A stretch of DNA of 61,769 nt, filler included. It is 5 parts of 5 records of this genome, joined end to end, with 100 filler letters (N's around TTAATTAATTAA, not from the genome) between each part and the next. Parts side by side here need not be neighbours in the genome. Positions count along the whole stretch, not along the records: positions 19,968 to 35,446 come from SRR31147125_17685; 4 more parts are not named here. The stretch is one strand, 5' to 3'. Positions 16,161 through 37,073 of the stretch are shown here, in pieces. The translations under genes were made by a program, and so were the position numbers. The notes under the pieces were generated by a model. That model was not told where the DNA came from. It made no database searches and saw only the letters and a program-made list of their open reading frames with translations. Numbering within the stretch: position 1 is the stretch's first letter; each line of letters begins with the position of its first letter.

Positions 16161-17779
16161 ATGCTGTCACTATTGCTGAAGAATAAATGGACTGTCTTTA
16201 AAAACAATCTTACTTTGGTCGCCAGGACGAAAATGCGCTCAAAACTGTTTCGTTATCTTTTATTGACAATATGGCCTGTTATTTTATTTCTGAACACAAG
16301 AGAACTCTTTTCATCCTGGATACTCTTGCCATCCATGGGCGAACAAATCATAGTAAATTTTATTTCTGTTTCTTTCCTCGGTATTCTGGTTTTACTTCTA
16401 GTGAGTGGTGTTACTCTGGTATTACATTATTACTTTCTTTCCAGCGATATAACGTTATTGTTTTCTTTACCTCTACCAAAAAAAGATATTCCAGTATAAA
16501 TTTATCGAGGCAACTATTGCCAACGCATCTCTATTTATCATCCTCGGATTACCTCTCGTGCTGGCATATGGTGTTGTGGTAAATGCCTCTATTTTCTTTT
16601 ATCTTATTTTAATCATATCAACCCTCATTTTTTTGGCTATACCGACTGCCCTGGCCACAACCATCAGTACTATTATAATACGAATTCTGCCGCCTCAAAA
16701 AGCGAAAAATGTTACAACTATTTTGATGGCTGGTATATTGATCTTTGCATGGGCTGGTTTTCAATTTATCAAATTCTCCGCTCTAAATCCTGCATACTCG
16801 GATTTTGATCCGAACTACATGCAGAATTTTCAGAATGTTATATCCGGTTCATTACTGAAACTTTTACCATCATACTGGTATGTGAAATCTATACATGGGG
16901 TCGCCCACGGTAATATTCAGGAAATAGTTTACCTGATTGCTCTTTTTGTTGTTCTTTATGTTTTATATGTTATTAGTAAAAGATTAGTTGAAGGGGCTTA
17001 CCAACAGGACATCATTGGTAAAGAAGGCATGTTTGGATTTGTTTATGTGAAGAAAAATTCAGGCATGAAATTAAAATCGTTAAATAATTCCACACCATTT
17101 TTTGCTGTATTACAGCGGGATCAAAAACTCCTTTTACGAGATTCGCGAGTTTTGATTCAATTCATGTTTTTTCTCGCTGTGATGGTTGTTTTTCCGTTTA
17201 TGGTCAAAAATATGGAATTAATGGATTCATTTTTAGGAGTGTATCTTCTTTTTTATTATTATGCTGATTGGAACCTTGAACGCGTGTTCTTTGGCGGCTC
17301 GTTTTTTACCTCTTGAAAGATTATCTTTTAATATCACCAAATGTGCTCCTGTGCCTGCAAGAGTTTACCTGTTAGCAAAACTTACTCTTGCTTTTGTGTC
17401 GACATTGCTTATATTTTGGATAGCCATATTTTTTCTTGTAACAAAGTTGCAGACCTCGTTTTTGGTTACTGTAACTATTATGGTGATGTCCATTTTTTCG
17501 TTTTTAAGCTCAGCGAGTTTTGGTCTTTTTATAGCCTCTGCTTTTTCAAATTACAAGTGGGATAACCCGAAGCGAATGTTCTTTGGTTATGGTAATATTC
17601 TGCTGACAATAGGTCCTTTTACATTACTGGGATTGGGACTGGTTATATTCACCACCGGGCTCTTATTTTTTAACACATTTTTTGCTACTCTATTTTTCTG
17701 TCTGTACACATTGATTCTCTCTGTGGTGGGATTATGGGCAGCGACTCGTAAAATGGAAAAATATGAGTGGATATTTTAA
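16161..17779 (+). CDS. ABC exporter permease, split in three by two homopolymer frameshifts (about 16480 and 17250)
   Basis: Consecutive multi-TM ORFs 16161-16499, 16558-17316 and 17261-17779 join into one protein (SSDITLLFSLP, RDQKLLLRD, WDNPKRM). Confidence 0.8.
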
Positions 17780-19867: not shown

Positions 19868-19967
19868 NNNNNNNNNNNNNNNNNNNNNNNNNNNNNNNNN
19901 NNNNNNNNNNNTTAATTAATTAANNNNNNNNNNNNNNNNNNNNNNNNNNNNNNNNNNNNNNNNNNNN
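19868..19967. other. Artificial contig-joining spacer
   Basis: 44 N + TTAATTAATTAA (stops in six frames) + 44 N. Confidence 0.98.
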
Positions 19968-20347
19968 CTGGCAATAAAGACATCGGCATAATTATAGTGC
20001 AAACCAATGAAAATTCATTGATTTTACCCTAAAATATACGAAAAGTTGCTTTATATAAAATCGCCTTTAACGTCTCTATTAAGACATTAAACGATAAAAA
20101 GCAACTTGGTATAATCAACCTGTCTTGTCATTACTAAGTTTATCATGTTTTTCACTAAAAAAATAGCGTGTTTTACTCTGGAGTTATACCAAGTTTACTT
20201 TTTGTGCACTAGAAGCTTACAGCTTTGAGCACAATCGTCATGAATTTCAGTTCTTCTGTTGACACGTTTATTAGCCTATATTTAGTACAACTTTTTGGTT
20301 TCAGTTCACAATATTGAGATTCTTTTTCAGATAAATCTCACCAAATA

Positions 20348-21073
20348 CTAGATTTCAATGACTAGTATATCTTCTTTTCCAAATTCAACTCTAGTTATAT
20401 AATCCTTTTCAAACCCAAACGCGCCTCCATGTGTAGAAGGTGACATTATGTTATTAATCATATATACCTGTTCAGAAAACTTAAGTGCTTGCTCGTGGTA
20501 ATTATTTAGTTCCTTATTCCATTCTTCCAAACTGAAATCAACATGAACTGGCCAAATTATTATCGATTTATGAACTTCGATACTGCTAAACAAATGCATT
20601 GTGTCCTCATCCCATAAGTCACCACATAAAGCAATTGTAAATTTACGACCATTAATTAAAGAATATTCTACTTGTTTTCCTTCGCGATAATGTTGATCTG
20701 TAATTGAAAACTCTTTCCATTCCTTTGATAATCGACGATAATTCACTGTCTGTACACCGTCGCTTGAAGCAACTAAATAACTACTAAATATAGCATCGTC
20801 AGCAAGTTCAAAATAACCAAATCCTACACCTATATTGTATTGTTTAGCTATATTTAATATATTAATGATAATTTCATCTTCTTTATCTAAAGCAATTTTT
20901 ATATCATGAGTAAAATTCCAATTAAGACTATTAAACCCCTGTAAGAATGATTCACCAAAAAATATATATTCAATGTTACTTTTAGCTGCGATTTTGAAGA
21001 ACTTAATTATTTGATTTGCATTATGCTTGATATCTCCATTGACACACTTTGCAGGAATTAGTCCTATTTTCAT
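20348..21073 (-). CDS. Carbon-nitrogen hydrolase (nitrilase superfamily)
   Basis: FFGESFLQG (Glu), YRRLS at the usual YRK site, ALCGDLW (Cys). Confidence 0.85.
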   Translation of the reverse strand: MKIGLIPAKCVNGDIKHNANQIIKFFKIAAKSNIEYIFFGESFLQGFNSLNWNFTHDIKIALDKEDEIIINILNIAKQYNIGVGFGYFELADDAIFSSYLVASSDGVQTVNYRRLSKEWKEFSITDQHYREGKQVEYSLINGRKFTIALCGDLWDEDTMHLFSSIEVHKSIIIWPVHVDFSLEEWNKELNNYHEQALKFSEQVYMINNIMSPSTHGGAFGFEKDYITRVEFGKEDILVIEI

Positions 21074-21074
21074 A

Positions 21075-22202
21075 TTATTTAGCTAACTTCCTAAATTGAT
21101 ATAATCCTGCAACTTCATTTAACTGCATATATCTTATCTCATAAAGGTCAATTAAATTACTCTTTTGATATATCTTTAGGATTGGATAATATTCCTCATC
21201 ATCCCAAATCAAACTATATTTTTGTTCTAATAGATCCATTTCATCTTGTATAATTGATGAAACATCACCTATAATAATCGTTCCAGAATCTTCTAGAAAT
21301 TGATTTAGATTTATTAACAAATCAATTTGTTCATCATATGACAAATGATGTATAGAGTAATTAAATATTATAAAATCAAATTTAGAATTTAATATACTCA
21401 TAATTTCAGTAAATTCTTTTTTAATAAAGGTCGCTTTTGGCATCTCAATTTTCGCTAATTCTATCATCTTTTCAGATATATCGACACCAGTTATATCATA
21501 TCCTAAATTATAAAGTGGAGAAGTCATTTCGCCTGTCCCTACACCCATATCAAGGATCTTTGCAGATTTTCTTTTAGTAATTAACTCGATGATTTGATAT
21601 TTAATCTCAGAATAACCTGCAAATGGATATGTGCCTTGCTGTTCTGATTTAATGACACTTCGATTGTAGTTACTCGCCCAGCGATCAAATAATTGCTTTT
21701 TAAGATATGCTTCTACATTCAGTTTATAAAGTATGTTTACCTCATCTTGTCCGTATTGAATGAATCCAAGTTTACGTTGCAAGCCATTTGATGCATCATT
21801 CCATTTACGAGCCTCTGAATATATTGTTGTAATCCCATCTATTTTCAAATCATTTATCATCTCATTAATCAGTTTTGTTGCAAAACCTCTACGCAAATAG
21901 TTTTTATGTGTTTGTAGTCCTTCAAGTAAAAACTTATTGTCATAAATATTAATTCTACAAACACTGATAATTTTTGTATTATCAGTTAGTATATAGTACT
22001 TGTAAAAATTAGTCGCTTTTGCACAACTGTCAATGTATGTCAAATAATCATTTTTTATTTCTTGTTGCTTTTCTTTTAATAATGGATCCAATAAAGAGAT
22101 ATTTCTGTCTTCTTCTAATTTGTCATTTAATACTTCAAACCACTGATTCTTTTCATTCAAAGATAACTTTGATATTTTGCTTTTATTCCAAATCTCTACC
22201 AT
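21075..22202 (-). CDS. GNAT acetyltransferase / class I SAM methyltransferase fusion
   Basis: LQTHKNYLRRGFATKL and NDASNGLQRKLGF (GNAT), then FDRWASNY, ILDMGVGTG, GVDISEKM, YSIHHL (MTase). Confidence 0.85.
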   Translation of the reverse strand: MVEIWNKSKISKLSLNEKNQWFEVLNDKLEEDRNISLLDPLLKEKQQEIKNDYLTYIDSCAKATNFYKYYILTDNTKIISVCRINIYDNKFLLEGLQTHKNYLRRGFATKLINEMINDLKIDGITTIYSEARKWNDASNGLQRKLGFIQYGQDEVNILYKLNVEAYLKKQLFDRWASNYNRSVIKSEQQGTYPFAGYSEIKYQIIELITKRKSAKILDMGVGTGEMTSPLYNLGYDITGVDISEKMIELAKIEMPKATFIKKEFTEIMSILNSKFDFIIFNYSIHHLSYDEQIDLLINLNQFLEDSGTIIIGDVSSIIQDEMDLLEQKYSLIWDDEEYYPILKIYQKSNLIDLYEIRYMQLNEVAGLYQFRKLAK

Positions 22203-22325
22203 AATAATCGCCCTCGTTTCATTAATTATATCATACTAACAGTATGTGATAAATACAATTTAATACCTAATAAAAAGAAAAAAGTTCATTTCTCAAACAA
22301 GAAATAAACTTAGCAATATCAAACT

Positions 22326-22414
22326 TGGCGGAGGAAAGGGGATTTGAACCCCTGCATCATTTCTGACCTACAAGCTTTCCAAGCCTGCCTCTTCAACCGC
22401 TTGAGTATTCCTCC
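22326..22414 (-). tRNA. tRNA-Ser(GGA)
   Basis: GGAGGAA...TTCCTCCGCCA acceptor stem, anticodon loop TTGGAAA, long variable arm, GTTCAAATC. Confidence 0.95.
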
Positions 22415-22417
22415 AAT

Positions 22418-22494
22418 TGGCGCACTCGACATGGATCGAACATGCGACCTCAATCTCCGGAGGATTGCGCTCTATCCAACTGAGCTACGAGTGC
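22418..22494 (-). tRNA. tRNA-Arg(CCG)
   Basis: GCACTCG...CGAGTGCGCCA acceptor stem, anticodon stem-loop CAATC-CTCCGGA-GATTG, GTTCGATC. Confidence 0.95.
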
Positions 22495-22551
22495 AACTCC
22501 TTATATATTTTAACATGTAATTCTATTTTTTAATCATATTTTGTTTATGAA

Positions 22552-22584
22552 TTTAAGGTTCTTTTAAGGCTAGTGTGTGATAAT
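22552..22584 (+). promoter_or_regulatory. OmpR/CiaR-type direct repeat plus extended -10 promoter element
   Basis: TTTAAG-GTTCT-TTTAAG, then exactly 10 nt, then GATAAT preceded by TG-n. Confidence 0.65.
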
Positions 22585-22666
22585 ATATCATACTTATGTG
22601 AAGTGCTATATTAAACTTGTTTTTACATAAAGTTTACGTTTTAATAGAGCTATCATATACGAGGAG

Positions 22667-24391
22667 ATGATGTTTATGAAAAAAACACTTTTAATATTTA
22701 CAATTTTACTAACACTATTTATTCTAACTTCTTGCTCACTATCATTGTTTAATGATGAAGAGGCTGAAGACACTTCTTCTAACTTAGAAGAAAATCTTAA
22801 TGAAATCGATTTACCAAATTTGGATGACGAAGATGCTTTATTAGAAATTTCAGCAGTAGATGGAACAATTACTTTTTCTAATTCAACAATTACTTCAACA
22901 TCAAATGAAGTAATTATTAATGATGATGTCATTACAATTGATACAGAAGGTACCTATGAATTAACAGGGCAATCAACACAATCAACCATCTATGTTGAAG
23001 CATCAAGTGATGATACCATTACTTTTGTATTAAATGAACTTGATCTATCTTCATCAACTGGTCCAATATTTTATATAGAAAATGCCGATAAAGTTATTAT
23101 TAATGTTAAATCAGATACAACCAATACTTTAACAGATTTATCAGATAGTGAATATGACAAAGATTCTATCATTTATGCTAAAGATGATCTAACAATTAAT
23201 GGTACTGGTACATTAACCATAAATGCTGGATTACAAAAAGGCATTAAAGCAAACGATGACTTAGTCATCAATGGTACAACACTAAATATTACTTCTGAAG
23301 GTCATGCGATTAAGGCAAACAATTCAATTACCATATCTGATGTTGACTTAACCATTCACTCAAATAGTGATGGTATCCAAAGTGACAATGAAGATGATCC
23401 ATCAGAAAGTCTTATTTATTTAATGAGTGGTACTTATGAGATCTATGCTTATGGTGATGCATTAAGTTCAACTTATGATTTAACTATTTTTGATGGTACT
23501 TACACATTATATTCAGGTTATCAAAATAATAACACAAGTGATACCAGTGGTAAATCAATTAAAGCTGATCATGGCATCTACTTAATCAATGGTACATTTG
23601 ATATGACTTCAAGTGAAGATGCTATACATTCAGATGATGGCCTCATCATTTTCGATGGTATCTATACAATTTCTGCTGAAGATGATGGTATCCATGCAAA
23701 CCAATCACTTACTATTCAAGATGGTACTTTCTATATTAATGAAGCTTATGAAGGTCTTGAAGGAAAATATATTGACATTAGTGGTGGATTATTTTATATC
23801 GATGCATCAGATGATGGTATTAATGCATCCGATCCAGACATTAGTTCAACAGTTGCTGATGTCCCAAATGGAGGGACAGCAAGTGCTTCTACTTCTACTG
23901 CTGTGATGAACATTAGTGGTGGAACATTCTATATTACATCAGATGATGACTCGATTGATGCGAACGGAACCATCACAATTACAGGTGGCTCATTCTACAT
24001 TAATGGCCCAACAAGTGGTATGCAGTCACTTGTTGACTATGATATTGATTTTTACTTAGAAGGCTCAACTTTTGTTGGTGTCTCAGGTTATGGAAATGAA
24101 ACAAAATATCCATCAGATGAATCAACACAAGTAAGCATTACATATAACACTGGTTCTACACAAGCAAGTGGTTCAACCATTGAATTATTAGATGAAGATA
24201 ACAATGTCATCTTAACATTTACAACATCTAAAACATATCAAGTGATCTTTTTAACATCACCTGATTTAGAACAAGATGCAACTTATACATTAAAGATAAA
24301 CACTATGATAGAAGATACGTTTACATTAGATGACATCACAAACACATTTAATGTAAGCAGTTCTTCAACAAATACACCACCAAGAAGATAG
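22667..24391 (+). CDS. DUF4353 / Cthe_2159-type beta-helix carbohydrate-binding lipoprotein, extremely acidic
   Basis: Lipobox ILTSC, KDDLTINGTGTLTI, DAIHSD, DDGIHA, YEGLEG, ASDDGINA, DSIDANG repeats. Confidence 0.85.
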   Translation: MMFMKKTLLIFTILLTLFILTSCSLSLFNDEEAEDTSSNLEENLNEIDLPNLDDEDALLEISAVDGTITFSNSTITSTSNEVIINDDVITIDTEGTYELTGQSTQSTIYVEASSDDTITFVLNELDLSSSTGPIFYIENADKVIINVKSDTTNTLTDLSDSEYDKDSIIYAKDDLTINGTGTLTINAGLQKGIKANDDLVINGTTLNITSEGHAIKANNSITISDVDLTIHSNSDGIQSDNEDDPSESLIYLMSGTYEIYAYGDALSSTYDLTIFDGTYTLYSGYQNNNTSDTSGKSIKADHGIYLINGTFDMTSSEDAIHSDDGLIIFDGIYTISAEDDGIHANQSLTIQDGTFYINEAYEGLEGKYIDISGGLFYIDASDDGINASDPDISSTVADVPNGGTASASTSTAVMNISGGTFYITSDDDSIDANGTITITGGSFYINGPTSGMQSLVDYDIDFYLEGSTFVGVSGYGNETKYPSDESTQVSITYNTGSTQASGSTIELLDEDNNVILTFTTSKTYQVIFLTSPDLEQDATYTLKINTMIEDTFTLDDITNTFNVSSSSTNTPPRR

Positions 24392-24402
24392 GAGTTGATC
24401 AT

Positions 24403-25146
24403 ATGCAACAACGGACATTTGATCGCATTGAAAAAAAATTCTTACTCACACAAACACAAAAAGAGTTTTTGGTAGAAGAAATCCAAAAACATCTTACATA
24501 TGATCCAAACATTGTAAAGGGTAAACCTTATCATATCTATAATTTATATTATGACACAACTGACTTTCAATTTATTAGACGCTCGCTTAACAAGCCCGCA
24601 TATAAAGATAAAATAAGACTTAGAACTTATCATTATCCATTAACTGATCATGATGCTGTATTCTTAGAAATTAAAAAGAAATACCAAGGAAGAATAAATA
24701 AGCGACGTATTGTCATGACTTATAAAGAATTTAAAGATTACTTAAACCATCAATATCAACCCGATGAACATGATTATCTTAATCAACAAATATATGAAGA
24801 AATTAATTACTTACTCACAAAAGATGCGCTTAAACCTAAAGCATATATTGCTTATGAAAGACTTGCTTTTCACAATGAATCAGATAGTCTAAGAGTTACA
24901 TTTGATCATAACATTAGATTTAGAACAGAGCAAGTTGAACTAGAAGATATGGATACACATCAAATATTAGAATCGGAATCAGAATGGCTGATGGAAATAA
25001 AAAGTACTCAAAACTTTCCATTCTGGCTTGTGCAACTTCTATCAGAACATCGTATATTTTCTAAAAGTTTCTCAAAATATGGCAAAGCCTATGAACAATT
25101 TATAACTGGAGGTTATTATGAAAACAAATTTATCCCTCATACTTGA
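24403..25146 (+). CDS. VTC-domain (polyphosphate polymerase-like, CYTH/TTM) protein
   Basis: RIEKKF, IYNLYYDT, KIRLRTY, FLEIKKK, KRR, LRVTFD, MEIK, SFSKY. Confidence 0.9.
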   Translation: MQQRTFDRIEKKFLLTQTQKEFLVEEIQKHLTYDPNIVKGKPYHIYNLYYDTTDFQFIRRSLNKPAYKDKIRLRTYHYPLTDHDAVFLEIKKKYQGRINKRRIVMTYKEFKDYLNHQYQPDEHDYLNQQIYEEINYLLTKDALKPKAYIAYERLAFHNESDSLRVTFDHNIRFRTEQVELEDMDTHQILESESEWLMEIKSTQNFPFWLVQLLSEHRIFSKSFSKYGKAYEQFITGGYYENKFIPHT

Positions 25147-25810
25147 TATGGAAACACTATCCGTATCTAATTTACTCATCATTCTTATCATATCAACATT
25201 GCTTGGTATGGCATTAAGTGGCATATTCTTATTTACGCATCGTAAAGAAGTTTATGACAAATCTTTTCCCGCAACGTTGCTACTGCTACCTTTGGTGATT
25301 GCAATCATCATAGCGTTAGTTTCAGATAATTTAGCAAGAGCTTTTAGTTTAGCTGGTGTATTTACACTTGTTAGATTTAGAACTGCCATTGCAGACTCAA
25401 GAGATATCACATATATTCTAGCTTCAGTCGCTATCGGTTTATCAACTGCCTTAGGTTATATCCATTATGCCCTAATCATTACAACATTTATTTCCCTCGT
25501 ATTTGTTTGTATGAATTTATTATCCGGATACCAAGTTGCAGAACCACAAGCGAAGCTAAAAATACTCGTCCCTGAAAACATGCAATATACGCATGCCTTT
25601 GATGATATCTTTGAAAAGAATTTAAAGAACTATAAACTCCAAAAAGTTAAAACAACCGATTTTGGTACAATGTTTGAACTTACTTATTTCATTAAAATGA
25701 ATAAGCAATTCAATCAAAAAGAGTTTTTAGATGATTTAAGAGTTAGAAATGGTAATTTAAATATTAGTCTATCAAGTGATTTTGCATCTCTAATAGAAGA
25801 AAACAGTTAA
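25118..25810 (+). CDS. DUF4956 membrane protein
   Basis: NLARAFSLAGVFTLVRFRT, KVKTTDFGTMFELTY, LRVRNGNLNI. Confidence 0.9.
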   Translation: MKTNLSLILDMETLSVSNLLIILIISTLLGMALSGIFLFTHRKEVYDKSFPATLLLLPLVIAIIIALVSDNLARAFSLAGVFTLVRFRTAIADSRDITYILASVAIGLSTALGYIHYALIITTFISLVFVCMNLLSGYQVAEPQAKLKILVPENMQYTHAFDDIFEKNLKNYKLQKVKTTDFGTMFELTYFIKMNKQFNQKEFLDDLRVRNGNLNISLSSDFASLIEENS

Positions 25811-25836
25811 GCATTTATTTGCTTAACTGTTTTTCT
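25798..25836. terminator. Bidirectional terminator between DUF4956 and gpx
   Basis: AAAACAGTTAAGC-8nt-GCTTAACTGTTTT between convergent stops. Confidence 0.8.
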
Positions 25837-26354
25837 TTATAATATTTCTTCAATATATGGTATTAATAAATCTGGTTTAAATCCTGGTGAAAATCTAGCA
25901 ACAACTTCACCATTTTTGTTAACTAAGAATTTTGTAAAATTCCATTTAATTTTGTCCCAAATATCAATTTATTCAATAACCCTTGCTGTTTTGATGGACT
26001 TGAATATTCAAGCGGTGCTGCTTTTTTTAAATATTTATAAAGTGGCGCTGCTTCTTTACCATTGACTTTGATTTTTGAAAACTGTGGGAAAGTTGTTTGA
26101 TAATTAAGTTCACAAAACTTCTTTATCCCTTTTTCATCTTCTGGTGCTTGATTCATAAATTGGTTACAAGGAAAATCAAGAATAACAAACCCTTTATCTT
26201 TATATGTATCATATAATTTTTGAAGTGGCTCGTATTGTGGTGTTAAACCACAGTGTGTTGCACTGTTAATCACTAAAACTGTTTTTCCTTTATAATCGCT
26301 TAAGCTAACAGCATTGCCTTCAATATCTAATACTTTAAAATCATATATGTTCAT
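25837..26354 (-). CDS. gpx: Glutathione peroxidase family (Cys-type); frameshift near 25957
   Basis: NSATHCGLTPQY, DFPCNQF; restoring one G gives IKWNFTKFLV to a stop at 25837; SD GAGGTG before ATG 26354. Confidence 0.9.
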
Positions 26355-26428
26355 ATGAATCACCTCTTTACTATATATTAACATAAAGCACGGTTCACGT
26401 GATAGAATATGGTAAAGAGGTGTTATAT

Positions 26429-27916
26429 ATGAAACTTTGGACAAATGGATTTTTTCATACTTTAGAGGATGAACATAAGGTTTATACTGATATTGTCACA
26501 AATCATGGTCACATTATTTCGTTTGATCCCCATGACTTTAATCACTTCGATGAAATCATTGATTTAGAAGGTGCACATGTTTATCCTGGATTTGTTGATG
26601 CCCATCTTCACATACTTGGTTATGGTGAAAAACTAAGTCAAATTAGTCTATCACACTGCAAGTATAAAAAAGATGTACTAAAACTTATCAAGGAGAAATT
26701 AGATGAAGGTTATATGACTTTTTATGGATTATCCATAGAGACGATTACGCTGCATGATCTCAATTCAATATCTTTAAATAAACCGATTATTATTAAATAT
26801 CATGACTACCACTCCTACATAGTCAATGATGTCGTTTTAAAGCGTGCTAACTTATCTAGTCAAAATGGATTATTAGAACTTGAAGATATGATTAAAGTTA
26901 ATCGTCTATTTTTATCTTATGATAAACATGATTTAACTGAACTTATCAATCGTGCGGTGACATCACTTTATCAATACGGTATTACAGGGGGACACTCTGA
27001 TGATCTTCATTATTTTAATGGATATTTTGAGACATTAGATGCTTTTAAAGATAGTCTTTTAACACATCCGTTTAGAACCCATTTACTCATTCACTATTTA
27101 GAACTCGATGCACATATTGCATCTAAAAATCCTTTTTTAGATATCAATAAATATTTGCAATTGGGTGCGGTTAAAGTATTTTTCGATGGAACCATAGGAT
27201 CTCAAACTGCCTATTTATATCACCCATATAAAGAAAGCGTTTCATGTGGAAGACTTGAAATGGACAAAGATAGTTTTATAGATATTGTTAAAAAAGTACG
27301 TGCGCTAAATATGAGTTTAGCTATTCATGTCATCGGTGATCAAGCGCTCGATCAACTCATCGAAATCTTACAATTATATCCGCCAAAAGAAGGATTACAT
27401 GATCGCATCATTCACGCTTCCTTAGTATCTCTTCATGCATTAAAAGCATTAAAAAATATGCCAGTCATCATTGATATTCAACCACAATTTATCCAAAGCG
27501 ACTTTCCAAATAGTTTTAATGTATTGAGTAAAAAACCTGAATACATCTATCCATTCAAATCATTTTTAGATCATAAAATCACCATATGCGGATCAAGTGA
27601 TGCACCTGTTGAAACACCAAATCCCATGCTTGGTATGTATCATGCTATCACAAGAAATGGTTTAAATAGTTTTGAAAACAATCATGATGAAAAACTTTCT
27701 CGTTTTGAAGCATTAAAACTCTATACGACTTATGCCAATATACCAACATATCACACACACAATCGAGGTTTCATTAAACGTGGTTATTTAGCTGATTTTA
27801 CTGTTTTTAATCATGATCTTTTATCTATTGATCTTCAGAAACTTAAAATTATAAGACCCATCATGACAATTATTGATGAAAAGATTGTCTATCAACAAAA
27901 AAGACTTCATGTGTGA
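26429..27916 (+). CDS. Amidohydrolase 3 family (YtcJ-like)
   Basis: PGFVDAHLH, KVFFDGTIGSQTA, IHVIGD, RIIHAS, GSSDAPV; SD GAGGTG before ATG 26429. Confidence 0.9.
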   Translation: MKLWTNGFFHTLEDEHKVYTDIVTNHGHIISFDPHDFNHFDEIIDLEGAHVYPGFVDAHLHILGYGEKLSQISLSHCKYKKDVLKLIKEKLDEGYMTFYGLSIETITLHDLNSISLNKPIIIKYHDYHSYIVNDVVLKRANLSSQNGLLELEDMIKVNRLFLSYDKHDLTELINRAVTSLYQYGITGGHSDDLHYFNGYFETLDAFKDSLLTHPFRTHLLIHYLELDAHIASKNPFLDINKYLQLGAVKVFFDGTIGSQTAYLYHPYKESVSCGRLEMDKDSFIDIVKKVRALNMSLAIHVIGDQALDQLIEILQLYPPKEGLHDRIIHASLVSLHALKALKNMPVIIDIQPQFIQSDFPNSFNVLSKKPEYIYPFKSFLDHKITICGSSDAPVETPNPMLGMYHAITRNGLNSFENNHDEKLSRFEALKLYTTYANIPTYHTHNRGFIKRGYLADFTVFNHDLLSIDLQKLKIIRPIMTIIDEKIVYQQKRLHV

Positions 27917-27928
27917 AGTCTTTTTTTT
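27897..27928. terminator. Bidirectional terminator ending the jetABC-pepC and amidohydrolase transcripts
   Basis: AAAAAAGACTTCA-TGTG-TGAAGTCTTTTTT. Confidence 0.85.
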
Positions 27929-27932
27929 ATGT

Positions 27933-29255
27933 TTATTTTGCAAGTGCACCCATTGGATCCCAAGGTTTTAACACTTTAGGTTCTTCTTCCCATGCAGCAC
28001 TTTCTTCTTTAGATAAATATTTTTTATTGACAACAGCTTGATACACATATTGATCAAACCAAGAGTCTGATGCTAAATAATATCCTTTATTTCCAGTTGT
28101 ATCTCCCCAACTGTTTTCTATTTTCCATCTAACTGGTTTATGATCATCTAAATGAACACCGGTAATTACCATGGCATGTGTCATCAGTGATTGTGCATAA
28201 TCAAGTTGATCAGCTTTTGACATATCAAAATTAAGTCCTAATAAGTCAAAGTCATAGGCACCATCATCCCAAACACCTTTTTTACGATCACCAAATCGAC
28301 CAACATCTGAACCAAACCATACAACTTCACCGTCTTGTAATTGCTTAATGACAAGTGCTTTTAAGCGTGACATTTCTAAATTGATATATTTAATATCATG
28401 CCCACCAATCACATTGCCTAAATAAGCCACTGTATAAGTTTTCATAAATGGTTTATCTATAGTTGGTGAATTAATCACACTGACATAATCTTCAATTTTA
28501 TCACCATATATTTCTTGATAAAAAGCTTGTGGTGTTAAATCTTTAATGACATGATACTTATCTTTAGACACATATTCAAAATCGAATTTTTGTGGTGGTA
28601 TACCAAAACATGTCACTAAGAATGTATAAAAATCATCTAAATAATTTGCTTTTACACCAGCAATTTCATCAGCTTTACCTGCTTGATGTAGTTTTCTAAC
28701 AACTGCTGCATACTGACGTAGTTTAATATTTATTAAACGATTCATAAATCTTGTTGAACTTGAAGCCTTCGTTTCTTCCATGGCTTCTTTTGGGACAACA
28801 CCATATTTTTCAACAAGTGCAACAAACATATCCCATTGCCCACCATCTTGAATACCAGTTTGTAATAAATGTTTTAATGTGCGATCATCGCTATCAACAT
28901 CTAAAAAATCATCCATTGATTGTAAAAAATAATTAATCTTTTCAAATTTATCCCAAAAAGCTGTATAGTTTTGTGATAACTCAAATGATTTTAAATCATA
29001 TGTTTTAGCAACTTCTTCACGTATGACGTTAAGTCCGGCAAATATCCAACATCTACCACTTTGCTTTTGATTGGCAACAGGTAATGTTTTAATTTCATGA
29101 GAAAACTTAAATTGATTTACTTGATTTTTCTCATGAACTTCAAACGCCGTTGCTAAATCATTTTTATACAACACACGTCTTAATACTTTTTGTTCTACTT
29201 TTTTTTCGTAATTAGCATTCAAATGGCTAATTTTTTCAAATGATATATCTTTCAT
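27933..29255 (-). CDS. pepC: Aminopeptidase C / bleomycin hydrolase (peptidase C1B)
   Basis: NQKQSGRCWIFA (catalytic Cys), DGGQWDM, THAMVITG (His), IENSWG (Asn), WDPMGALA C-terminus. Confidence 0.96.
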   Translation of the reverse strand: MKDISFEKISHLNANYEKKVEQKVLRRVLYKNDLATAFEVHEKNQVNQFKFSHEIKTLPVANQKQSGRCWIFAGLNVIREEVAKTYDLKSFELSQNYTAFWDKFEKINYFLQSMDDFLDVDSDDRTLKHLLQTGIQDGGQWDMFVALVEKYGVVPKEAMEETKASSSTRFMNRLINIKLRQYAAVVRKLHQAGKADEIAGVKANYLDDFYTFLVTCFGIPPQKFDFEYVSKDKYHVIKDLTPQAFYQEIYGDKIEDYVSVINSPTIDKPFMKTYTVAYLGNVIGGHDIKYINLEMSRLKALVIKQLQDGEVVWFGSDVGRFGDRKKGVWDDGAYDFDLLGLNFDMSKADQLDYAQSLMTHAMVITGVHLDDHKPVRWKIENSWGDTTGNKGYYLASDSWFDQYVYQAVVNKKYLSKEESAAWEEEPKVLKPWDPMGALAK

Positions 29256-29263
29256 AGTGCCTC

Positions 29264-32200
29264 CTACAGTCCTAATACTCTTTCATCATTAAACGTTTCT
29301 ACTATCGCATAATCATTATCTTTGACCACAACAAGACTCGTATTCACATAATGAATAATATTTGAGACTCTTTGAGGCGGTACTGCAATAATGAGTTGAA
29401 TAGATAAACTGTTATAAAATTTCATCATTGCATCTATTCTTGATTCATCCATATTGTTAAATGCTTCATCAAATAAGACAATGCAACCTGCATCCATTCT
29501 TCTATTTTTAGAAAGTAATTGTTGGAATGATGCTGCAATCACGATATAAAATGGTACTTGCGTTTCTCCACCACTCTTTTCACGACTTACTTTTGAAAAT
29601 AGTGATTTATTACCATTTAAATTGGTAACCTCAATATCATAACTCATATAGTTTCTATAATCTAGAAATTTATATGTCAATTGATCATATTCAGGACTAT
29701 TTGATGCGATCTTTTCGAATAATTCTGATAATATAGTTTCTTTTCTCTTTGATAGACCTTCAGTAAATAATGTATGATTTTCAATTGCTTGATTGCTCAT
29801 GATAATATCATAGTATAATTTATAATCAGGATCTTCACTTGCTGTATAAATGAGTTGATATGCATCACTACCGAATGTTTTATCGGTTAAAGCATAATTA
29901 AGTTCAGCAATTTGTTGTTGCGCATTTTCAATACTTGCACGAAGTTTTCCAACAAACTCTTCTTTAAATCCTATTTCAGAATGCTTACGTAGGTCGATAG
30001 CTTCTTGCTCATATCTGACTAAATCATTGTTTCTAATTTTATTGGCTTCTTTTTCATACGTATCAAGACCATCTAAATTAGGCTCACCACTAAAATGATA
30101 ATCTAGATTGTATTGTTTCATATGACTTGATAACGTATATGTGGCACGATCAATTTGTGAATTAAGCGCTGTTGATGATTCTGATAGATAAGATGATACT
30201 TTATCATGATCACCATCATAACGTTGTTTAAGTGCATAAAACTGTGTATTTGCAATCGATAATTTTTCAGGATGCTTTTGACTGAGTTCTTTTTGAGCAA
30301 CCATAAATTGATCGAGTTTAGTTTGAATATCATCAACTAAATCCATAATACGTTGACGTTCATCACGTTGCGTTGTAATTTTACCAACTATAATATCTGA
30401 TTGACGTCTTAAATCTTTTCGATTATTTTTAGCTTTTTCAATTTGTATTTCTAATTGTTCTAAACTTTGATCTTTACCTAATGCAGCAACTTGATCTTCT
30501 ATTTGTGCATATTCTCTACGTGTTTGTTTAATTAAATCAAGATATCTAATTTGTCCTTGATGAACAAGTTGATTACTCTTTGATTGATTAAGCAAACGAA
30601 CAACTCTTGTTTGTTGATCAGTTAAATCATATAAATGATTGATTTGATCTTCAAGTTGTGCAAGAATCTTAGATTCACTTTCTAGTTGAATTTGTGTTGC
30701 TTGTTGACCTATAAATGGAGTTTCATAAATTTTAGGATTCATTTGTCTCGCAGTGTAGTTACTATAGGTCATGCCTGATGGTGTAATTGATCTACGATAT
30801 TTTTTTAAATCTTTGACATCATCTACACATGCAACACCATTAAGTAGCATATTCGCATATAATCTTGCGTAACGGTGCTCTGATGATACTTTTGATGATA
30901 ACATACCTTCTGTGATTTCATCATAACTATCAAGCTTATTTGTATTAACCAAACCTACACCATATATTTTTTGTTCAAACTTAACGCGATCATAAATTTC
31001 AAGTGCATCATTAAAGTATCTAGGATCAACGATAATGTTAAATCTTTGATTGCCTAAATATCCTTCTAATGCATTTCGCCATTTTTCATCAGCTACTTCA
31101 ATAAGTTCACATAAAGGTTGAACATTCACTTCTTTTTGATAATAATTTGATAGTTCATCATTTAAAGTACGCATAAGCTTTTCAACATAAAACGGATATG
31201 TCTTAACATGTCTTCTTAATTGATGTATGCGCCCTTTTGTTTGATTAATGGATGCTGATAATGCTTGTTTCTCTCTTTCAACTTTATCACGTTCTGTATG
31301 ATATGCTTGTAAAAGTGCAGAAACATCACTGCTTAGCGTTTCTAAATGCATTGATAATTCATCAGCTTCAAGTTTATCGCTATATGTTTGATAATAATTA
31401 ACAAATGCTTTTACTGATTGATTCGGCACATATGTTAATAATGATTTCATGGTAGAAAATTCTTTTTCCAGTGTTTGTCTTAACTGTTGCAACACTTCTT
31501 TTTGTTGATCAAATTCTGCACCTTTTTTACGAAGTGCTTCTTGATATTGCTGAAGCGTTCTCGATAAATCACTATCATTTTTTGCACGTTCTAAATTCAA
31601 AATTGCTTGATCATTTTCATCTATTTGTACATCTATTTGTGATTTCGCTTCTCGTAAATAATCAAGTTGCTTACCAATATTTACAAGTTTAGCTTCGTTA
31701 TCTTTAATGTATGCTTCTCTTTTTTCAATCCAATTTAATTGATCGACTAATTGATTGATATCTCTTTGATCTTTATTAAGTATAATATCTTCACCAAGTT
31801 GATTAATTTGATCTAGTTTTTCTAGTTTTTCTTTATCAAACTGGATTTGTGCTTCTACTTTTTTAAGTTGAGCAACATTGTTTTTAAGTGATTGAATATC
31901 AATAGGATTATCATCAAGTAAAAAATCAAATACAAACTGTTGTAAATCAATTGATTTAAATGCTAAAGCTTTTGGTAGTATTTTTGCATATTTAGTTGCG
32001 TCCATACCAAAAAATCTAGCAAGTGCTGATTTATACTTTCTTTGAGAGTCAAACGGTGATAAATCCATATCAAGAGTTTTTAAATATGCTTTCATTGATT
32101 TATAATCTCTTGGATATTTTTTATCTAAAAATAATGAATCATGTATAGACACATTATCAAGTAAATAAAATCTTTCTTTTAAATTACCACTTTTTGGAAG

Positions 32201-32539
32201 ATCTAAAATAACGCCTATGGTCGAATATTTTTTATGTTGTTCATCAAAAAATTCTAAAGCAAGATGTGAAATAACATCACCATTTCTTAAATATTCTTTA
32301 TTTTCAGCACCAATACGACCTCTTACATAACCTTCAAGTGAACGTCTTGCATCATCAGTTGCTGCAATATTAAATTTTGCGCCACTACGACCACCTACAA
32401 GTAGATATTGAATGGCATCTAATAGTGTGGATTTTCCAGAGCCATTTTCACCTGACACAAGTGCACTATCTCTAATGTCAATGGTTTGATTTGCAAATAA
32501 ATGCCAATTTACCAATTTAATCTTCGTCAGTTTCTTCAT
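29264..32539 (-). CDS. jetC: SMC-family ATPase, Wadjet JetC / MksB type
   Basis: KLVNWHLF, Walker A GENGSGKSTLLDA, FN.AA..RSLEGYVRG, long coiled coils with hinge, LDYRNY, KSGGETQ signature, Walker B LFDEAF; 1091 aa. Confidence 0.9.
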   Translation of the reverse strand: MKKLTKIKLVNWHLFANQTIDIRDSALVSGENGSGKSTLLDAIQYLLVGGRSGAKFNIAATDDARRSLEGYVRGRIGAENKEYLRNGDVISHLALEFFDEQHKKYSTIGVILDLPKSGNLKERFYLLDNVSIHDSLFLDKKYPRDYKSMKAYLKTLDMDLSPFDSQRKYKSALARFFGMDATKYAKILPKALAFKSIDLQQFVFDFLLDDNPIDIQSLKNNVAQLKKVEAQIQFDKEKLEKLDQINQLGEDIILNKDQRDINQLVDQLNWIEKREAYIKDNEAKLVNIGKQLDYLREAKSQIDVQIDENDQAILNLERAKNDSDLSRTLQQYQEALRKKGAEFDQQKEVLQQLRQTLEKEFSTMKSLLTYVPNQSVKAFVNYYQTYSDKLEADELSMHLETLSSDVSALLQAYHTERDKVEREKQALSASINQTKGRIHQLRRHVKTYPFYVEKLMRTLNDELSNYYQKEVNVQPLCELIEVADEKWRNALEGYLGNQRFNIIVDPRYFNDALEIYDRVKFEQKIYGVGLVNTNKLDSYDEITEGMLSSKVSSEHRYARLYANMLLNGVACVDDVKDLKKYRRSITPSGMTYSNYTARQMNPKIYETPFIGQQATQIQLESESKILAQLEDQINHLYDLTDQQTRVVRLLNQSKSNQLVHQGQIRYLDLIKQTRREYAQIEDQVAALGKDQSLEQLEIQIEKAKNNRKDLRRQSDIIVGKITTQRDERQRIMDLVDDIQTKLDQFMVAQKELSQKHPEKLSIANTQFYALKQRYDGDHDKVSSYLSESSTALNSQIDRATYTLSSHMKQYNLDYHFSGEPNLDGLDTYEKEANKIRNNDLVRYEQEAIDLRKHSEIGFKEEFVGKLRASIENAQQQIAELNYALTDKTFGSDAYQLIYTASEDPDYKLYYDIIMSNQAIENHTLFTEGLSKRKETILSELFEKIASNSPEYDQLTYKFLDYRNYMSYDIEVTNLNGNKSLFSKVSREKSGGETQVPFYIVIAASFQQLLSKNRRMDAGCIVLFDEAFNNMDESRIDAMMKFYNSLSIQLIIAVPPQRVSNIIHYVNTSLVVVKDNDYAIVETFNDERVLGL

Positions 32540-33152
32540 CTGGTTTCACCCCTTCTACATAGCCTTCATACTTATCGACAACTTCTTTGATTGAATCATA
32601 ATTTGTAACATATAAAATCGTTGGGTATATTTTAATTCTTGCATCATCATGCAACCCTTTATCAATATAATCAATTAAATTATAATTTCTTAGAAAAGTA
32701 AGTGCTGGTTTAAGTCTATCTTTTGTAATACGTTTATGATCGAGGTAACCAATTCTTGTTAACTCTGAATGAATCTCATGCAAAAAGATTTCAACATCTT
32801 CATCTAATGTGACATAATCTTTTTTATGTTGATATAAAATTCTAAGTACAAGAATTAATATACTCTCAGTTTTTCTAAGTCTCATATGATTAAATAACTG
32901 CTCATTTTCGATGTAGACGACTTCAGTTTCTCTATGTATATTTAGTCTAAAATCTGCAAGCGCTAAATAGCTTTCAAAAACTTCTTTAAACGCTAAGATA
33001 AAACGATAATCATTGGTATCGCCAGGTTTTCTTTTTGTGATAAAGTTGACTTGGAATAGTTTATTAATAATACGTGATACATTATTCTTTTCACTTTCTT
33101 TTAAGTTTAAATAAGTATCACTTAATTGCATCATCGCTTGTTTTTTATTCAT
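32517..33152 (-). CDS. jetB: Wadjet JetB / MksE KITE subunit (DUF4194-like)
   Basis: ESILILVLRILY, LTFLRNYNLI, IKIYPTI; 211 aa; overlaps both jetA and jetC. Confidence 0.8.
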   Translation of the reverse strand: MNKKQAMMQLSDTYLNLKESEKNNVSRIINKLFQVNFITKRKPGDTNDYRFILAFKEVFESYLALADFRLNIHRETEVVYIENEQLFNHMRLRKTESILILVLRILYQHKKDYVTLDEDVEIFLHEIHSELTRIGYLDHKRITKDRLKPALTFLRNYNLIDYIDKGLHDDARIKIYPTILYVTNYDSIKEVVDKYEGYVEGVKPDEETDED

Positions 33153-34530
33153 AAGATTTCCCCTTTATAATGAAGTTTTGGAAAGTTACATAGTTGTTTT
33201 TAACTGTTTGCCCAGTTAAATGAACATCATAGTGCATACCTACCGATTTAGAATATAAGAAAATCAATATTAATTTTACATAATCTTCTTGTGTATCTAT
33301 ATTGATATCTTTTGCTTCAATCTCTTTTTGTTTACCAAGAAGAGATTTCACATACATATCAATTTCTTTTTTACCAAAGATATTATTCTTAAGCAATGCT
33401 TTGATTTTTTGTGATCGCATTTCCTCACTAATAAATCCTTGATCAAATGTGATTTCTTCTGCTTGTGTATCTATTCTTTGACGTCTTTTTGAGTATAGTG
33501 ATTGCGTATCTAGATTTCTAGATTGCGTGATGTGAAATAACTTCGTATAATCAAATGAATCATCCTTTAAGACAATTTGGAATAATCGATTGAATATCCC
33601 TTCAATATCATCTGATTGATTTGTTAAGAATAAAATCTTAGATGCTGCAGCTGTGACATATTGCTCATTTTTCTTGTCAATCGATAAGATTAAATATTCT
33701 AACGCATTAAAACTATCTGATATATATCTCAGTTTATCTTCAACATAATTAAATGCTTCGTTATAATCTTCTAAACGCTTTTTATACATCGTGATTTTTG
33801 CAAGTTCATCCATCATATCTTCGTTATGAATAATATTAGAAACTCTTTCTAATATCCCACGCTTGTAGCGTGATAGACTATCTGTTGTTTTTAAATTATA
33901 ATATGCTGAATCAAAGAAGTTTTGTTTATACTCAATTAACAATTTTTCTAGCAAATCATGAAGATCATCTTTTGATCTTTTTGTTGTAATATCATAATAA
34001 AACCTGTATATATTTGCTTTTAATGCTTTTAACTTTCTAATAATGTCGCTTGTTTTTAAAGTTGCTTGTTCTAATACACCAAGACCTTCTTCTATAGAAA
34101 AAGAATCCAATAGTGAAAATACTGTATATATTTCACCTGTATATTCGTTTTGTGTATTATTTTGAATACGTATTAGTGTATCAATTAATTGAATAGCATA
34201 GTCAAAAAGGTTAAGTGATGTCTTATAATCACCTAACTCTTCTTCGCCTAACCATCCAGTTGATTTTAATACTGAAATGACATGAACTGCTTTTTGTCTT
34301 GCTGTATGGGCAAGTTCGCCTTCTTCAACATCATCAAATAATTCTTCTGCACGATCATCAAAATAATCTATAAGTTTTTGAACAATATATTCTCTATCCC
34401 CTTGGAAAGCATCCTCAATACTATCTACTGCATGAAAAATAACTAATATGCAGTCAATATATATTTCTTTATTTGGGGAGGCAAGGACACTGAAAAAATT
34501 AGACGGTAATCTATCAAACAAATGTGCCAT
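33145..34530 (-). CDS. jetA: Wadjet JetA / MksF kleisin (DUF5716-like)
   Basis: LFDRLPSNFFSVLASPNKEIY N-terminus, L..TGWL, YYNLKT; first gene of the overlapping triplet; SD GGAGG. Confidence 0.8.
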   Translation of the reverse strand: MAHLFDRLPSNFFSVLASPNKEIYIDCILVIFHAVDSIEDAFQGDREYIVQKLIDYFDDRAEELFDDVEEGELAHTARQKAVHVISVLKSTGWLGEEELGDYKTSLNLFDYAIQLIDTLIRIQNNTQNEYTGEIYTVFSLLDSFSIEEGLGVLEQATLKTSDIIRKLKALKANIYRFYYDITTKRSKDDLHDLLEKLLIEYKQNFFDSAYYNLKTTDSLSRYKRGILERVSNIIHNEDMMDELAKITMYKKRLEDYNEAFNYVEDKLRYISDSFNALEYLILSIDKKNEQYVTAAASKILFLTNQSDDIEGIFNRLFQIVLKDDSFDYTKLFHITQSRNLDTQSLYSKRRQRIDTQAEEITFDQGFISEEMRSQKIKALLKNNIFGKKEIDMYVKSLLGKQKEIEAKDINIDTQEDYVKLILIFLYSKSVGMHYDVHLTGQTVKNNYVTFQNFIIKGKSYE

Positions 34531-34577
34531 TTTTTCCTCCTTATTTTATAAATAAAATAACTTTATATATCATTACT

Positions 34578-34606
34578 ATTGTATCATGTTTGCAATATAT
34601 TTACTA
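34578..34606 (-). promoter_or_regulatory. Putative sigma-A promoter of the jet operon
   Basis: Extended -10 TGATACAAT (34586-34578) with weak -35 TAGTAA at 17-nt spacing. Confidence 0.5.
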
Positions 34607-34646
34607 TTTATGACGATCTTTTTCTATTTAAAATACATCTAAATAT

Positions 34647-34680
34647 AAAAAAACAAACGATAAATATATATTTATCGTTT
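34647..34680 (-). terminator. Terminator separating the DsbA-family gene from jetA
   Basis: AAACGATAAATA-TA-TATTTATCGTTT palindrome followed by G and a T7 run on the minus strand. Confidence 0.65.
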
Positions 34681-35324: not shown

Positions 35325-35394
35325 AAAAACACACCCTTTATTATTCATTGATATTCTATCAATAAAAGGGTGTGTAATTCAATTCATTTACATT

Positions 35395-37071: not shown

Positions 37072-37073
37072 TT

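Follow-up and report, generated by a model that had tools for sequence, protein, structure and literature searches.

We identified the Cthe_2159 lipoprotein as a second, new outside partner of the known but unexplained VTC-DUF4956 cassette. VTC and DUF4956 form a fixed core and the third gene is variable: the outside partner can be either the lipoprotein or CotH, an alternative that the initial annotation of this locus had overlooked. The CotH form of the cassette is already in print and was missed by the same annotation; cotH, polyphosphate-polymerase and DUF4956 genes were described as accessory genes in Gram-positive pel loci (Whitfield 2020, PMC7112168). Our literature search found neither a link between Cthe_2159 and VTC-DUF4956 nor a co-mention of “Cthe_2159” and “polyphosphate”. 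It also yielded no demonstrated function for the trio, in agreement with the initial annotation.

Organisation of the locus

The window, by which we mean the whole stretch of DNA analysed (61,769 nucleotides), consists of five contigs joined by N44-TTAATTAATTAA-N44 spacers (19868-19967, 35447-35546, 41434-41533 and 49230-49329). The trio lies on a single contig of 15.5 kb (19968-35446), and the joined contigs differ in composition. ORF calling recovered three co-directional genes, encoding from 5′ to 3′ a Cthe_2159 lipoprotein, a VTC-domain enzyme and a DUF4956 membrane protein. The lipoprotein gene (22667..24391, plus strand) encodes 574 aa if read from its first ATG; judging by the Shine-Dalgarno spacing, the third ATG (22676, MKKTLL...LTSC) is the more likely start. 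A gap of 11 nt (24392-24402), in which no terminator was found, separates it from the VTC gene (24403..25146, plus strand, 247 aa). The adjoining DUF4956 gene, on the same strand (25118..25810, plus, 230 aa), overlaps the VTC gene by 29 nt (25118-25146). Each gene has one Shine-Dalgarno-like site: GAGGAG for the lipoprotein, TAGGAG for VTC and GGAGG for DUF4956.

The array is closed by a two-way intrinsic terminator (25799..25834) with a 15-pair stem and a T run on both strands. Its folding energy was -22 kcal/mol (z -6.79), and 0 of 200 shuffles folded equally well. A convergent glutathione-peroxidase gene on the minus strand (25923-26444) shares this terminator. The gap, the overlap, the ribosome-binding sites of the individual genes and the terminator support the reading of the trio as one operon, and the initial description of a tightly linked trio closed by a terminator was reproduced in each of these features. 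That description had extended the unit over 22552..25810. The three genes do occupy 22667-25810, whereas 22552-22666 is a non-coding leader, with the GAGGAG ribosome-binding site of the lipoprotein gene at its end (22655..22666, plus strand, by sequence inspection). No convincing promoter was found for the lipoprotein gene; the promoter-like sites counted in the scan numbered 24, against a shuffle mean of 23.1. Two tRNA genes, Ser-gga and Arg-ccg, lie on the minus strand just upstream of the leader.

Among the chosen ORFs of at least 80 aa on the trio's contig none matched CotH, and neither pel genes nor glycan-synthesis genes were found on that contig (19968-35446). A 99%-identical variant of the sequence was present in another run, with 25 differing coding sites, 17 of them silent, which we take as a sign of selection. 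The closest named relatives of the VTC protein (about 50% identity) came from Acholeplasmataceae and Tenericutes MAGs, the one hint towards the wall-less host that the initial annotation considered probable.

The three encoded proteins

All three family assignments made initially (PF14262, PF09359 and PF16316) hold. The lipoprotein matched the Cthe_2159 family PF14262 in Pfam with an E value of 1.4e-80 (270.8 bits, cut-off 25.8). Its signal peptide closes with the lipobox L-T-S-C, and its pI is 4.05, with 95 Asp and Glu against 17 Lys and Arg, and 144 Ser and Thr; its identification as an acidic beta-helix lipoprotein was borne out by the family match, the lipobox and the pI. Residues 64-276 aligned with PDB 4peu_A (E 7.3e-23). 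The protein therefore shares its Pfam family with Cthe_2159 of Clostridium thermocellum (PDB 4peu/4phb) and aligns directly to the solved chain. Unlike the solved protein it is a membrane-anchored lipoprotein and is about 300 residues longer. It probably binds Ca. The solved Cthe_2159 protein is described as a lyase-like beta-helix that binds cellulose and pectin (PMC6712302).

The VTC-domain protein, a candidate polyphosphate polymerase, matched PF09359 (E 6.6e-44, 150.6 bits, cut-off 23), with residues 8-233 covering profile positions 2-234 of 235. This domain was its sole Pfam match. The protein is predicted to be cytoplasmic and has neither a membrane segment nor an SPX domain. Its sequence alone found no match among PDB sequences at E values up to 1, and the family profile matched Vtc4 (3g3q) with an E value of 1.3e-8. 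When its predicted model (pLDDT 87.9) was searched with Foldseek, the top matches were Vtc4 structures (3g3r and 3g3q, E 4e-14 to 9e-14, TM 0.71-0.73), against an E value of 2e-8 or weaker and a TM of about 0.5 for tunnel enzymes outside the VTC family. By profile and predicted fold, the protein thus appears clearly nearer to Vtc4 than to the hydrolases.

Mapping onto chain 8i6v_E paired R8 with R196, K12 with K200, R72 with R264, R74 with R266, K91 with K281, K100 with K294, Y151 with Y359, R153 with R361 and R164 with R373. These tunnel residues, including the counterpart of K200, were invariant in 121/121 VTC proteins (R164 in 120), and the basic tunnel motifs noted initially are accordingly present throughout the family sample. 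E10, E89, D168, E198, K200, S224 and K225 were also identical in all 121. Work by Hothorn in 2009 reportedly assigned the roles of the basic tunnel residues of Vtc4 and of its catalytic lysine K200. The bacterial proteins have the motif R-x-E-x-K where Vtc4 has R-x-T-x-K, that is, Glu and not Thr at position 198; a Glu kept there is characteristic of tunnel hydrolases. A search for extended, fused versions of the VTC protein of the window found none, which is weak evidence. A single natural DUF4956-VTC fusion was recovered (genome G395). Used as a query it gave 26 matches, each covering at most 49%, with no fused relative among them. It could reflect a misassembly or the loss of a stop codon, and we treat it as a hint at most.

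The DUF4956 protein matched PF16316 (E 3.3e-15, 56.7 bits, cut-off 30.6), as did all 59 of its aligned relatives, and no other membrane family was matched by this partner of VTC. Five helices are predicted, followed by a C-terminal ACT-like domain (model pLDDT 87.7). A conserved patch, R86-F87-R88 with D96, lies in the loop joining helices 3 and 4; in the alignment of 59 sequences R88 and G80 were invariant, and R86, F87 and D96 were kept in at least 90%. The C-terminal domain is ACT-like with Z scores up to 9.1. Against the C-terminal domains of MgtC it scored 8.2 (2lqj) and 7.9, and many ACT domains tie with these values. The MgtC/SapB family has the same layout of five membrane helices and a small ACT-like domain. 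Weak matches to the MgtC family PF02308 occurred in 29 of the 59 members (best E 2.7e-4), and the window's own protein had no match to it at E values up to 1. MgtC is a regulator; to our knowledge it is known neither as a channel nor as a partner of a tunnel enzyme. The membrane part of the DUF4956 protein had no Foldseek match among solved structures at an E value of 0.001 or below, and a wider structure search returned common helical arrangements only.

Conservation of the pair and its outside partners

We examined a locus set of 113 sources, consisting of 112 loci and the window. A DUF4956 homologue was found in 103 of them, adjacent to VTC and on the same strand in every case (103/103). 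Seven of the 10 sources without one had less than 330 nt of downstream room. Querying genome contigs with the single protein gave one locus only. In a separate sample of 401 genomes, VTC was detected at 82 places in 68 genomes. All but one of these 68 genomes also had DUF4956, and at 76 of the 82 places a DUF4956 gene of the same orientation stood no more than 1.5 kb away, downstream in 65 cases and upstream in 11. In a survey of the neighbours of 76 loci, two-component systems stood beside 21. All ten of their proteins that were typed scored under the NCBIfam cut-offs, with RppA/B, PnpS, PhoB/PhoR and WalK as the nearest names, and we claim no phosphate control.

The third gene was more varied. 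Within 5 kb, the secreted protein CotH was encoded at 48 of the 82 VTC places and Cthe_2159 at 12-13. The CotH count was made irrespective of pel genes and may be compared with a 2025 paper, which states that the three-gene arrangement was not found beyond the Pel locus (PMC12345266). The initial claim that the trio recurs in Firmicutes agrees with its presence in Firmicutes-type genomes, where Cthe_2159 lies near 12-13 of the 82 VTC places. The present cassette shares with that of the pel loci the VTC-DUF4956 core and an exported third protein. It differs in having a Cthe_2159 lipoprotein instead of CotH, in the lack of pel genes on its contig and in its VTC protein, which falls on the opposite side of a deep split into two clades. 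These clades were taken from a quick tree, and correspond to CotH-linked and Cthe_2159-linked VTC proteins, with the window in the second.

Could the lipoprotein gene be a mere neighbour, so that the two genes for VTC and DUF4956 make up the real unit and their grouping as a trio is a local accident? The four closest syntenic relatives (loci L034, L036, L037 and L040) have VTC-DUF4956 without the lipoprotein, which therefore appears to be accessory, and Cthe_2159 lay within 5 kb at no more than the 12-13 places given above. Against this stands the distribution of the family across genomes. Cthe_2159 occurred in 30 of the 68 VTC-bearing genomes and in 8 of the 333 without VTC (odds ratio 32, Fisher p 2e-19, uncorrected for kinship), and all matches with an E value below 1e-40 were in VTC-bearing genomes. 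Fifteen of the 34 tabulated Cthe_2159 places had VTC or DUF4956 no more than 5 kb away. The position of the gene relative to the pair varied (upstream, downstream or divergent), which argues for selection on the linkage itself. In addition, locus L038 repeated the trio in identical order with a 9-nt gap, the 11-nt gap in the window holds no terminator, and all 31 Cthe-linked VTC proteins fell into one of the two clades. A chance neighbourhood is thus very improbable. The partner proteins also resembled one another: among those of at least 400 aa, 28 of 29 had a pI below 5, and most had a signal peptide ending in Cys.

Proposed function and alternative readings

We tentatively suggest that the operon may well encode a membrane-coupled polyphosphate system that produces the polymer at the membrane and hands it outward to the lipoprotein. 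All three steps, namely the synthesis of polyphosphate, its transit through DUF4956 and its arrival at the lipoprotein, are proposed from gene linkage, residue conservation and the yeast precedent. Like yeast Vtc4, the cytoplasmic VTC enzyme would use the gamma-phosphate of ATP to assemble polyphosphate inside its basic tunnel, and it would dock on the cytoplasmic face of DUF4956. The latter would expose its ACT-like domain to the cytoplasm and the Arg-x-Arg/Asp patch on the inner side of the membrane; it would accept the chain and convey either the polymer or its phosphate to the other side. Outside, the acidic lipoprotein might hold or process the polymer via bridging cations, the purpose being cation capture or envelope modification. 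Eukaryotic VTC (yeast Vtc4 with Vtc3 or Vtc2 and Vtc1; 3g3q, 7ytj, 8i6v) has a tunnel domain of the same family and fold, its K200, R264, R266, K281, Y359, R361 and R373 have counterparts here, and its enzyme is likewise tied to a membrane protein. However, the bacterial enzyme lacks both SPX and membrane helices of its own, its partner is DUF4956 with five helices and an ACT-like domain instead of a three-helix Vtc1-type domain, and the proposed target is the outside of a bacterial cell and not a vacuole.

Several observations speak against this reading. DUF4956 resembles MgtC, its membrane part is without a match among solved structures, and the VTC proteins have R-x-E-x-K in place of the R-x-T-x-K of Vtc4. 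The lipoprotein is missing from the four closest syntenic relatives, direct binding of a polyanion by so acidic a protein is impossible, and our literature search turned up no bacterial VTC-domain protein for which synthesis of polyphosphate is reported. The counterpart in Streptococcus intermedius is SIR_1592-1594, whose CotH partner is exported, in line with the proposed reading, and has a kinase fold (PMC12345266). The same study states that deletion of VTC (SIR_1593) did not change aggregation, unlike deletions of the DUF4956-like and CotH genes; in the aggregation assay, VTC and DUF4956 therefore do not necessarily work as a single unit.

It is conceivable, though we consider it unlikely, that polyphosphate or a short phosphate chain stays inside the cell. 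DUF4956 would then be an anchor or an MgtC-like ACT-sensor regulator, and the lipoprotein would be co-regulated for divalent-cation homeostasis, with Ca or Mg captured outside by the lipoprotein and sequestered on polyphosphate inside. The MgtC-like architecture of DUF4956 (the weak PF02308 matches in 29/59 members and the C-terminal Z scores of 8.2 and 7.9), the two-component systems beside 21/76 loci and the richness of the lipoprotein in acidic residues are in keeping with such a store. PPK1 was not detected in 48 of the 68 VTC-bearing genomes, and VTC could therefore be their storage polymerase. Yet VTC was not traded against PPK1, which occurred in 20/68 VTC-bearing genomes and 50/333 others. 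A storage enzyme needs no dedicated membrane protein, whereas DUF4956 was present at 76/82 places, and the consistently outside location of the partners (Cthe_2159 lipoproteins and secreted CotH) is hard to explain by a store inside.

The Glu of the R-x-E-x-K motif bears on another proposal, namely that the VTC protein is no polymerase and works as a hydrolase or transferase of the tunnel type, with triphosphate, ATP or polyphosphate as substrate. This activity would drive or gate DUF4956, or supply phosphate for chemistry on surface glycans bound by the beta-helix. Of the ExExK signature of the hydrolases, one Glu survives in the motif, and other tunnel enzymes also matched the VTC model structurally. 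The descriptions of Cthe_2159 as a cellulose and pectin binder (PMC6712302) and of a kinase fold in CotH partners point the same way. We nevertheless regard this as quite doubtful: sequence and predicted fold place the protein clearly closer to Vtc4, the first motif position is Arg (R196 of Vtc4) in 121/121 proteins, and the trio's contig carries no glycan-synthesis genes.

Polyphosphate in bacteria is credited to PPK1 and PPK2, both of them cytoplasmic, and we know of no explanation for the origin of the extracellular polyphosphate found in some bacteria. A Vtc4-like enzyme with a dedicated membrane protein, encoded beside exported proteins, is a concrete candidate for a route by which polyphosphate reaches the outside. 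The occurrence of Cthe_2159 almost only where the pair occurs ties a structurally solved and functionally vague family, so far filed as carbohydrate-binding beta-helices, to phosphate-polymer biology. A bolder proposal, which we consider somewhat unlikely, is that VTC-DUF4956 represents a third type of polyphosphate synthase in bacteria, which threads its polymer out of the cell during synthesis. The Cthe_2159 family as a whole would then be its surface receiver, anchoring the polymer through Ca bridges, depolymerising it or transferring phosphate. If true, the receiver role would explain the near-confinement of Cthe_2159 to pair-bearing genomes, and the cassette would provide a genetic answer to how bacteria place polyphosphate on their surface.

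Operon structure and source contig

Three genes on the plus strand encode a Cthe_2159 lipoprotein (22667–24391, ORF of 574 aa, Pfam E 1.4e-80), a VTC-domain protein (24403–25146, 247 aa, E 6.6e-44) and a DUF4956 protein (25118–25810, 230 aa, E 3.3e-15). Close linkage and a terminator had been proposed in the initial annotation; the 11-nt gap, the 29-nt overlap and the hairpin at 25799–25834 were all confirmed, and the trio is a real operon. The hairpin, a 15-pair stem with a T run, ends the unit (−22 kcal/mol, z −6.8), and equal folding was seen in none of 200 shuffles. A Shine-Dalgarno-like site stands ahead of every gene; for the lipoprotein, its spacing makes the third ATG (22676) the likelier start, from which translation would yield a typical signal peptide with L-T-S-C at its end. 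Upstream, tRNA-Ser and tRNA-Arg lie on the opposite strand. All three products exceeded the curated Pfam cut-offs and are ordinary members of their families, and an NCBIfam search with them returned no usable name. A variant contig from another run was about 99% identical over 22326–26500, with 38 differences. Twenty-five fell inside the trio genes and 17 of these were silent (silent and replacing: lipoprotein gene, 7 and 5; VTC gene, 6 and 2; DUF4956 gene, 4 and 1).

Four artificial spacers (19868–19967, 35447–35546, 41434–41533 and 49230–49329), each of 44 N, TTAATTAATTAA and 44 N, divide the window into five contigs. These differ in composition, and findings that cross pieces, or a host inferred from other pieces, would be unsound. 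The trio contig (19968–35446, 15.5 kb) has a G+C content of about 30%, and its tetranucleotide profile correlated more strongly with those of pieces 1 and 4 (0.85–0.88) than with that of piece 3 (about 0.5). The other pieces, which carry a T9SS SprA protein, sigma-54 activators and a corrinoid activase, among others, should not be taken for the organism of the trio contig. In piece 5, a 2069-aa frame open at the window end (55560–61769, minus) matched SprA_N (E 1.5e-201); SprA is the type IX secretion translocon, and the frame suggests a Bacteroidota-like source, in contrast to the trio contig. Piece 3, a short contig with a tetranucleotide make-up far from that of the trio contig, holds a RACo-type corrinoid activase and a DUF1638 gene (35572–37781, 45–54% G+C). 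A bacterial serpin of 413 aa in piece 1 (7802–9043; PF00079, E 1e-113) adjoins a sigma-54 two-component pair. An ABC_tran_2-type gene in the same piece (16161–17779) is apparently split over three ORFs, two covering profile positions 8–92 and 116–340 of 542 and the third matchless, and may represent a frameshifted gene or assembly errors.

The closest named VTC relatives, at about 50% identity, were from Acholeplasmataceae and Tenericutes MAGs, and a wall-less host is a guess. Near-identical DNA was found in 14 run rows from five studies, labelled as aquatic, sand and seawater metagenomes and two coded organisms. The gene order of the trio contig recurs in four metagenome loci (L034, L036, L037 and L040) as a GNAT-methyltransferase (L034 and L040 only), VTC, DUF4956, a C1-like peptidase (absent from L040) and Jet genes, with JetC in all four and JetB/JetA-like genes in all except L036. 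In the window, genes for a JetC-like SMC ATPase (1091 aa), a DUF4194 (JetB-like) protein and JetA are consecutive at 29264–34530 (minus), an order common to L034, L037 and L040, and the C1-like peptidase follows where a JetD gene would stand. The set resembles those of the MksBEF/Wadjet type, with no evident nuclease partner.

The VTC-DUF4956 pair

A profile of 39 VTC relatives matched yeast Vtc4 among solved structures (E 1.3e-8). Vtc4 was also the best structural match of the window VTC model (pLDDT 87.9; E 4e-14, TM 0.71–0.73), other tunnel enzymes reaching E 2e-8 or weaker and a TM of about 0.5. In the profile alignment (numbering of chain 8i6v_E), R8, K12, R72, R74, K91, K100, Y151, R153 and R164 of the window protein correspond to Vtc4 R196, K200, R264, R266, K281, K294, Y359, R361 and R373, which Hothorn and colleagues reportedly found in 2009 to be important for catalysis. 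These nine were identical in 121 of 121 VTC proteins from both clades (R164 in 120), as were E10, E89, D168, E198, K200, S224 and K225 (window numbering).

We collected 112 VTC loci (80 from metagenomes, 31 from genomes and one from genome contigs). Counting the window, 103 of 113 sources had a DUF4956 homologue, on the same strand and adjoining VTC in all 103; seven of the ten others had less than 330 nt downstream of VTC, and there was room in L016, L050 and L096. VTC occurred in 68 of 401 genomes (82 places) drawn evenly from the phylum to which an Oscillospiraceae MAG belongs, and 67 of the 68 possessed DUF4956. A same-strand DUF4956 gene lay within 1.5 kb at 76 places (65 downstream, 11 upstream) and about 2 kb off at one; at five it was absent from the same, often short, contig. 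The core unit is the two-gene VTC-DUF4956 pair. One sampled genome, G395, encodes a 489-aa fusion with DUF4956 N-terminal and VTC C-terminal (L113:5161-6630, minus), which counts as a hint only, since none of its 26 matches was fused or spanned both halves. A 210-aa lamin-tail-domain membrane protein is encoded downstream of it.

The DUF4956 model (pLDDT 87.7) has helices at 16–40, 49–67, 71–88, 94–111 and 115–136, followed by an alpha/beta domain. By the positive-inside rule, this domain and the basic loops that follow helices 1 and 3 are probably cytoplasmic, and the most conserved residues would lie on the inner face (R88 is invariant; R86, F87, D96 and Y37 are conserved in at least 90%).

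The third gene

Within 5 kb of the 82 VTC places, the partner was CotH at 48, Cthe_2159 at 12, both at one and neither at 21, several of the last being at contig ends. Each open frame contributed a single Cthe_2159 row to this count (34 places, E up to 6e-7), with extra stretches of counted frames and weak rows left out; 15 of the 34 had VTC or DUF4956 no more than 5 kb away. Among the best matches to the window VTC (76 loci: the window and 75 of the 80 metagenome loci), Cthe_2159 occurred between genes −4 and +5 in 21, window included, whether upstream, downstream or divergent, and CotH in two. A two-component system was also found in 21 of the 76, its OmpR/PhoB-type response regulator and histidine kinase adjoining VTC-DUF4956, often divergently (e.g. 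L058:7778-9814, L068:7623-9849 and L107:4110-5989); all ten of the proteins compared fell under every NCBIfam cut-off.

A rapid maximum-likelihood analysis of 121 VTC proteins (midpoint root, long branches, metagenome loci skewed towards the window's clade) resolved two groups (SH-aLRT 99). Of the 21 rows in the smaller, 17 were CotH-linked; the larger had 100, including the window and all 31 Cthe-linked rows. One subclade has a fixed order of the module, a ribbon-helix-helix protein of about 230 aa and ClpB (L067, L077, L081, L087, L088 and L101; without Cthe_2159 between in L043, L045, L078 and L098).

For Gram-positive pel loci, Whitfield et al. (2020, PMC7112168) list as accessory genes cotH, a poly-phosphate polymerase, DUF4956 and DUF4832, and a C. 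perfringens locus listed by Lepp et al. (2010) has VTC-domain and CotH genes. According to a 2025 mBio paper (PMC12345266), the three-gene arrangement was not found outside Pel loci; the 48 CotH-linked places above, scored by CotH distance, may or may not be such loci. Unlike the printed cotH-VTC-DUF4956 cassette, the window has Cthe_2159 in the place of CotH, and this swap is new relative to that cassette. Our literature search found no paper naming both 'Cthe_2159' and 'polyphosphate', though the wider literature could differ.

Possible functions of the module

We tentatively prefer to read the trio as a candidate membrane-coupled polyphosphate synthase. With neither an SPX domain nor a Vtc1-type channel, it falls outside the eukaryotic VTC complex. 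That the VTC protein is instead a hydrolase or transferase and no polymerase appears unlikely. The bacterial motif R-x-E-x-K shares its Arg with Vtc4 and has Glu where Vtc4 has Thr, and this Glu is a hydrolase trait. The literature search found no assay of any bacterial VTC protein. An internal polyphosphate store with an MgtC-like regulator is a doubtful alternative. The C-domain of DUF4956 resembles ACT domains (Z up to 9.1), with MgtC C-domains among the ties (Z 8.2 and 7.9), and weak MgtC matches came from 29 of 59 DUF4956 relatives and none from the window protein; the membrane part had no explanatory match among solved structures. In the S. intermedius work (PMC12345266), the DUF4956-like protein is said to combine a membrane domain of MgtC type with an ACT domain, and aggregation in sputum medium was more than halved by deletion of its gene or of CotH, with no such loss on deletion of the VTC gene. 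PPK1, present in 20 of the 68 VTC-bearing genomes versus 50 of the 333 others, does not decide between these readings.

It is very improbable that the lipoprotein gene is a chance neighbour. In the window's nine-member VTC subclade it is found only in the window and L038, the latter with the same gene order and a 9-nt gap. Across the 401 genomes, Cthe_2159 follows VTC, occurring in 38 (30 of 68 with VTC versus 8 of 333 others; odds ratio 32, Fisher p 2e-19, which overstates the case because kinship was ignored, although the trend itself is clear). Matches in the eight VTC-less genomes were weak or incomplete: the strongest (E 2.5e-38) covered part of the model, and the rest had E values of 1e-25 or weaker. 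Of the 29 Cthe_2159 partner proteins of at least 400 aa, 28 had a pI below 5 and 18 a strict lipobox pattern, several others having a Cys at the end of the signal peptide; the window lipoprotein has a pI of 4.05, its acidic residues (95) far outnumbering the basic ones (17). Under the synthase reading, VTC-DUF4956 would couple polyphosphate synthesis to the membrane, product or phosphate would be handed outward through or along DUF4956, and the surface recipient would here be the acidic, putatively Ca-binding beta-helix lipoprotein.
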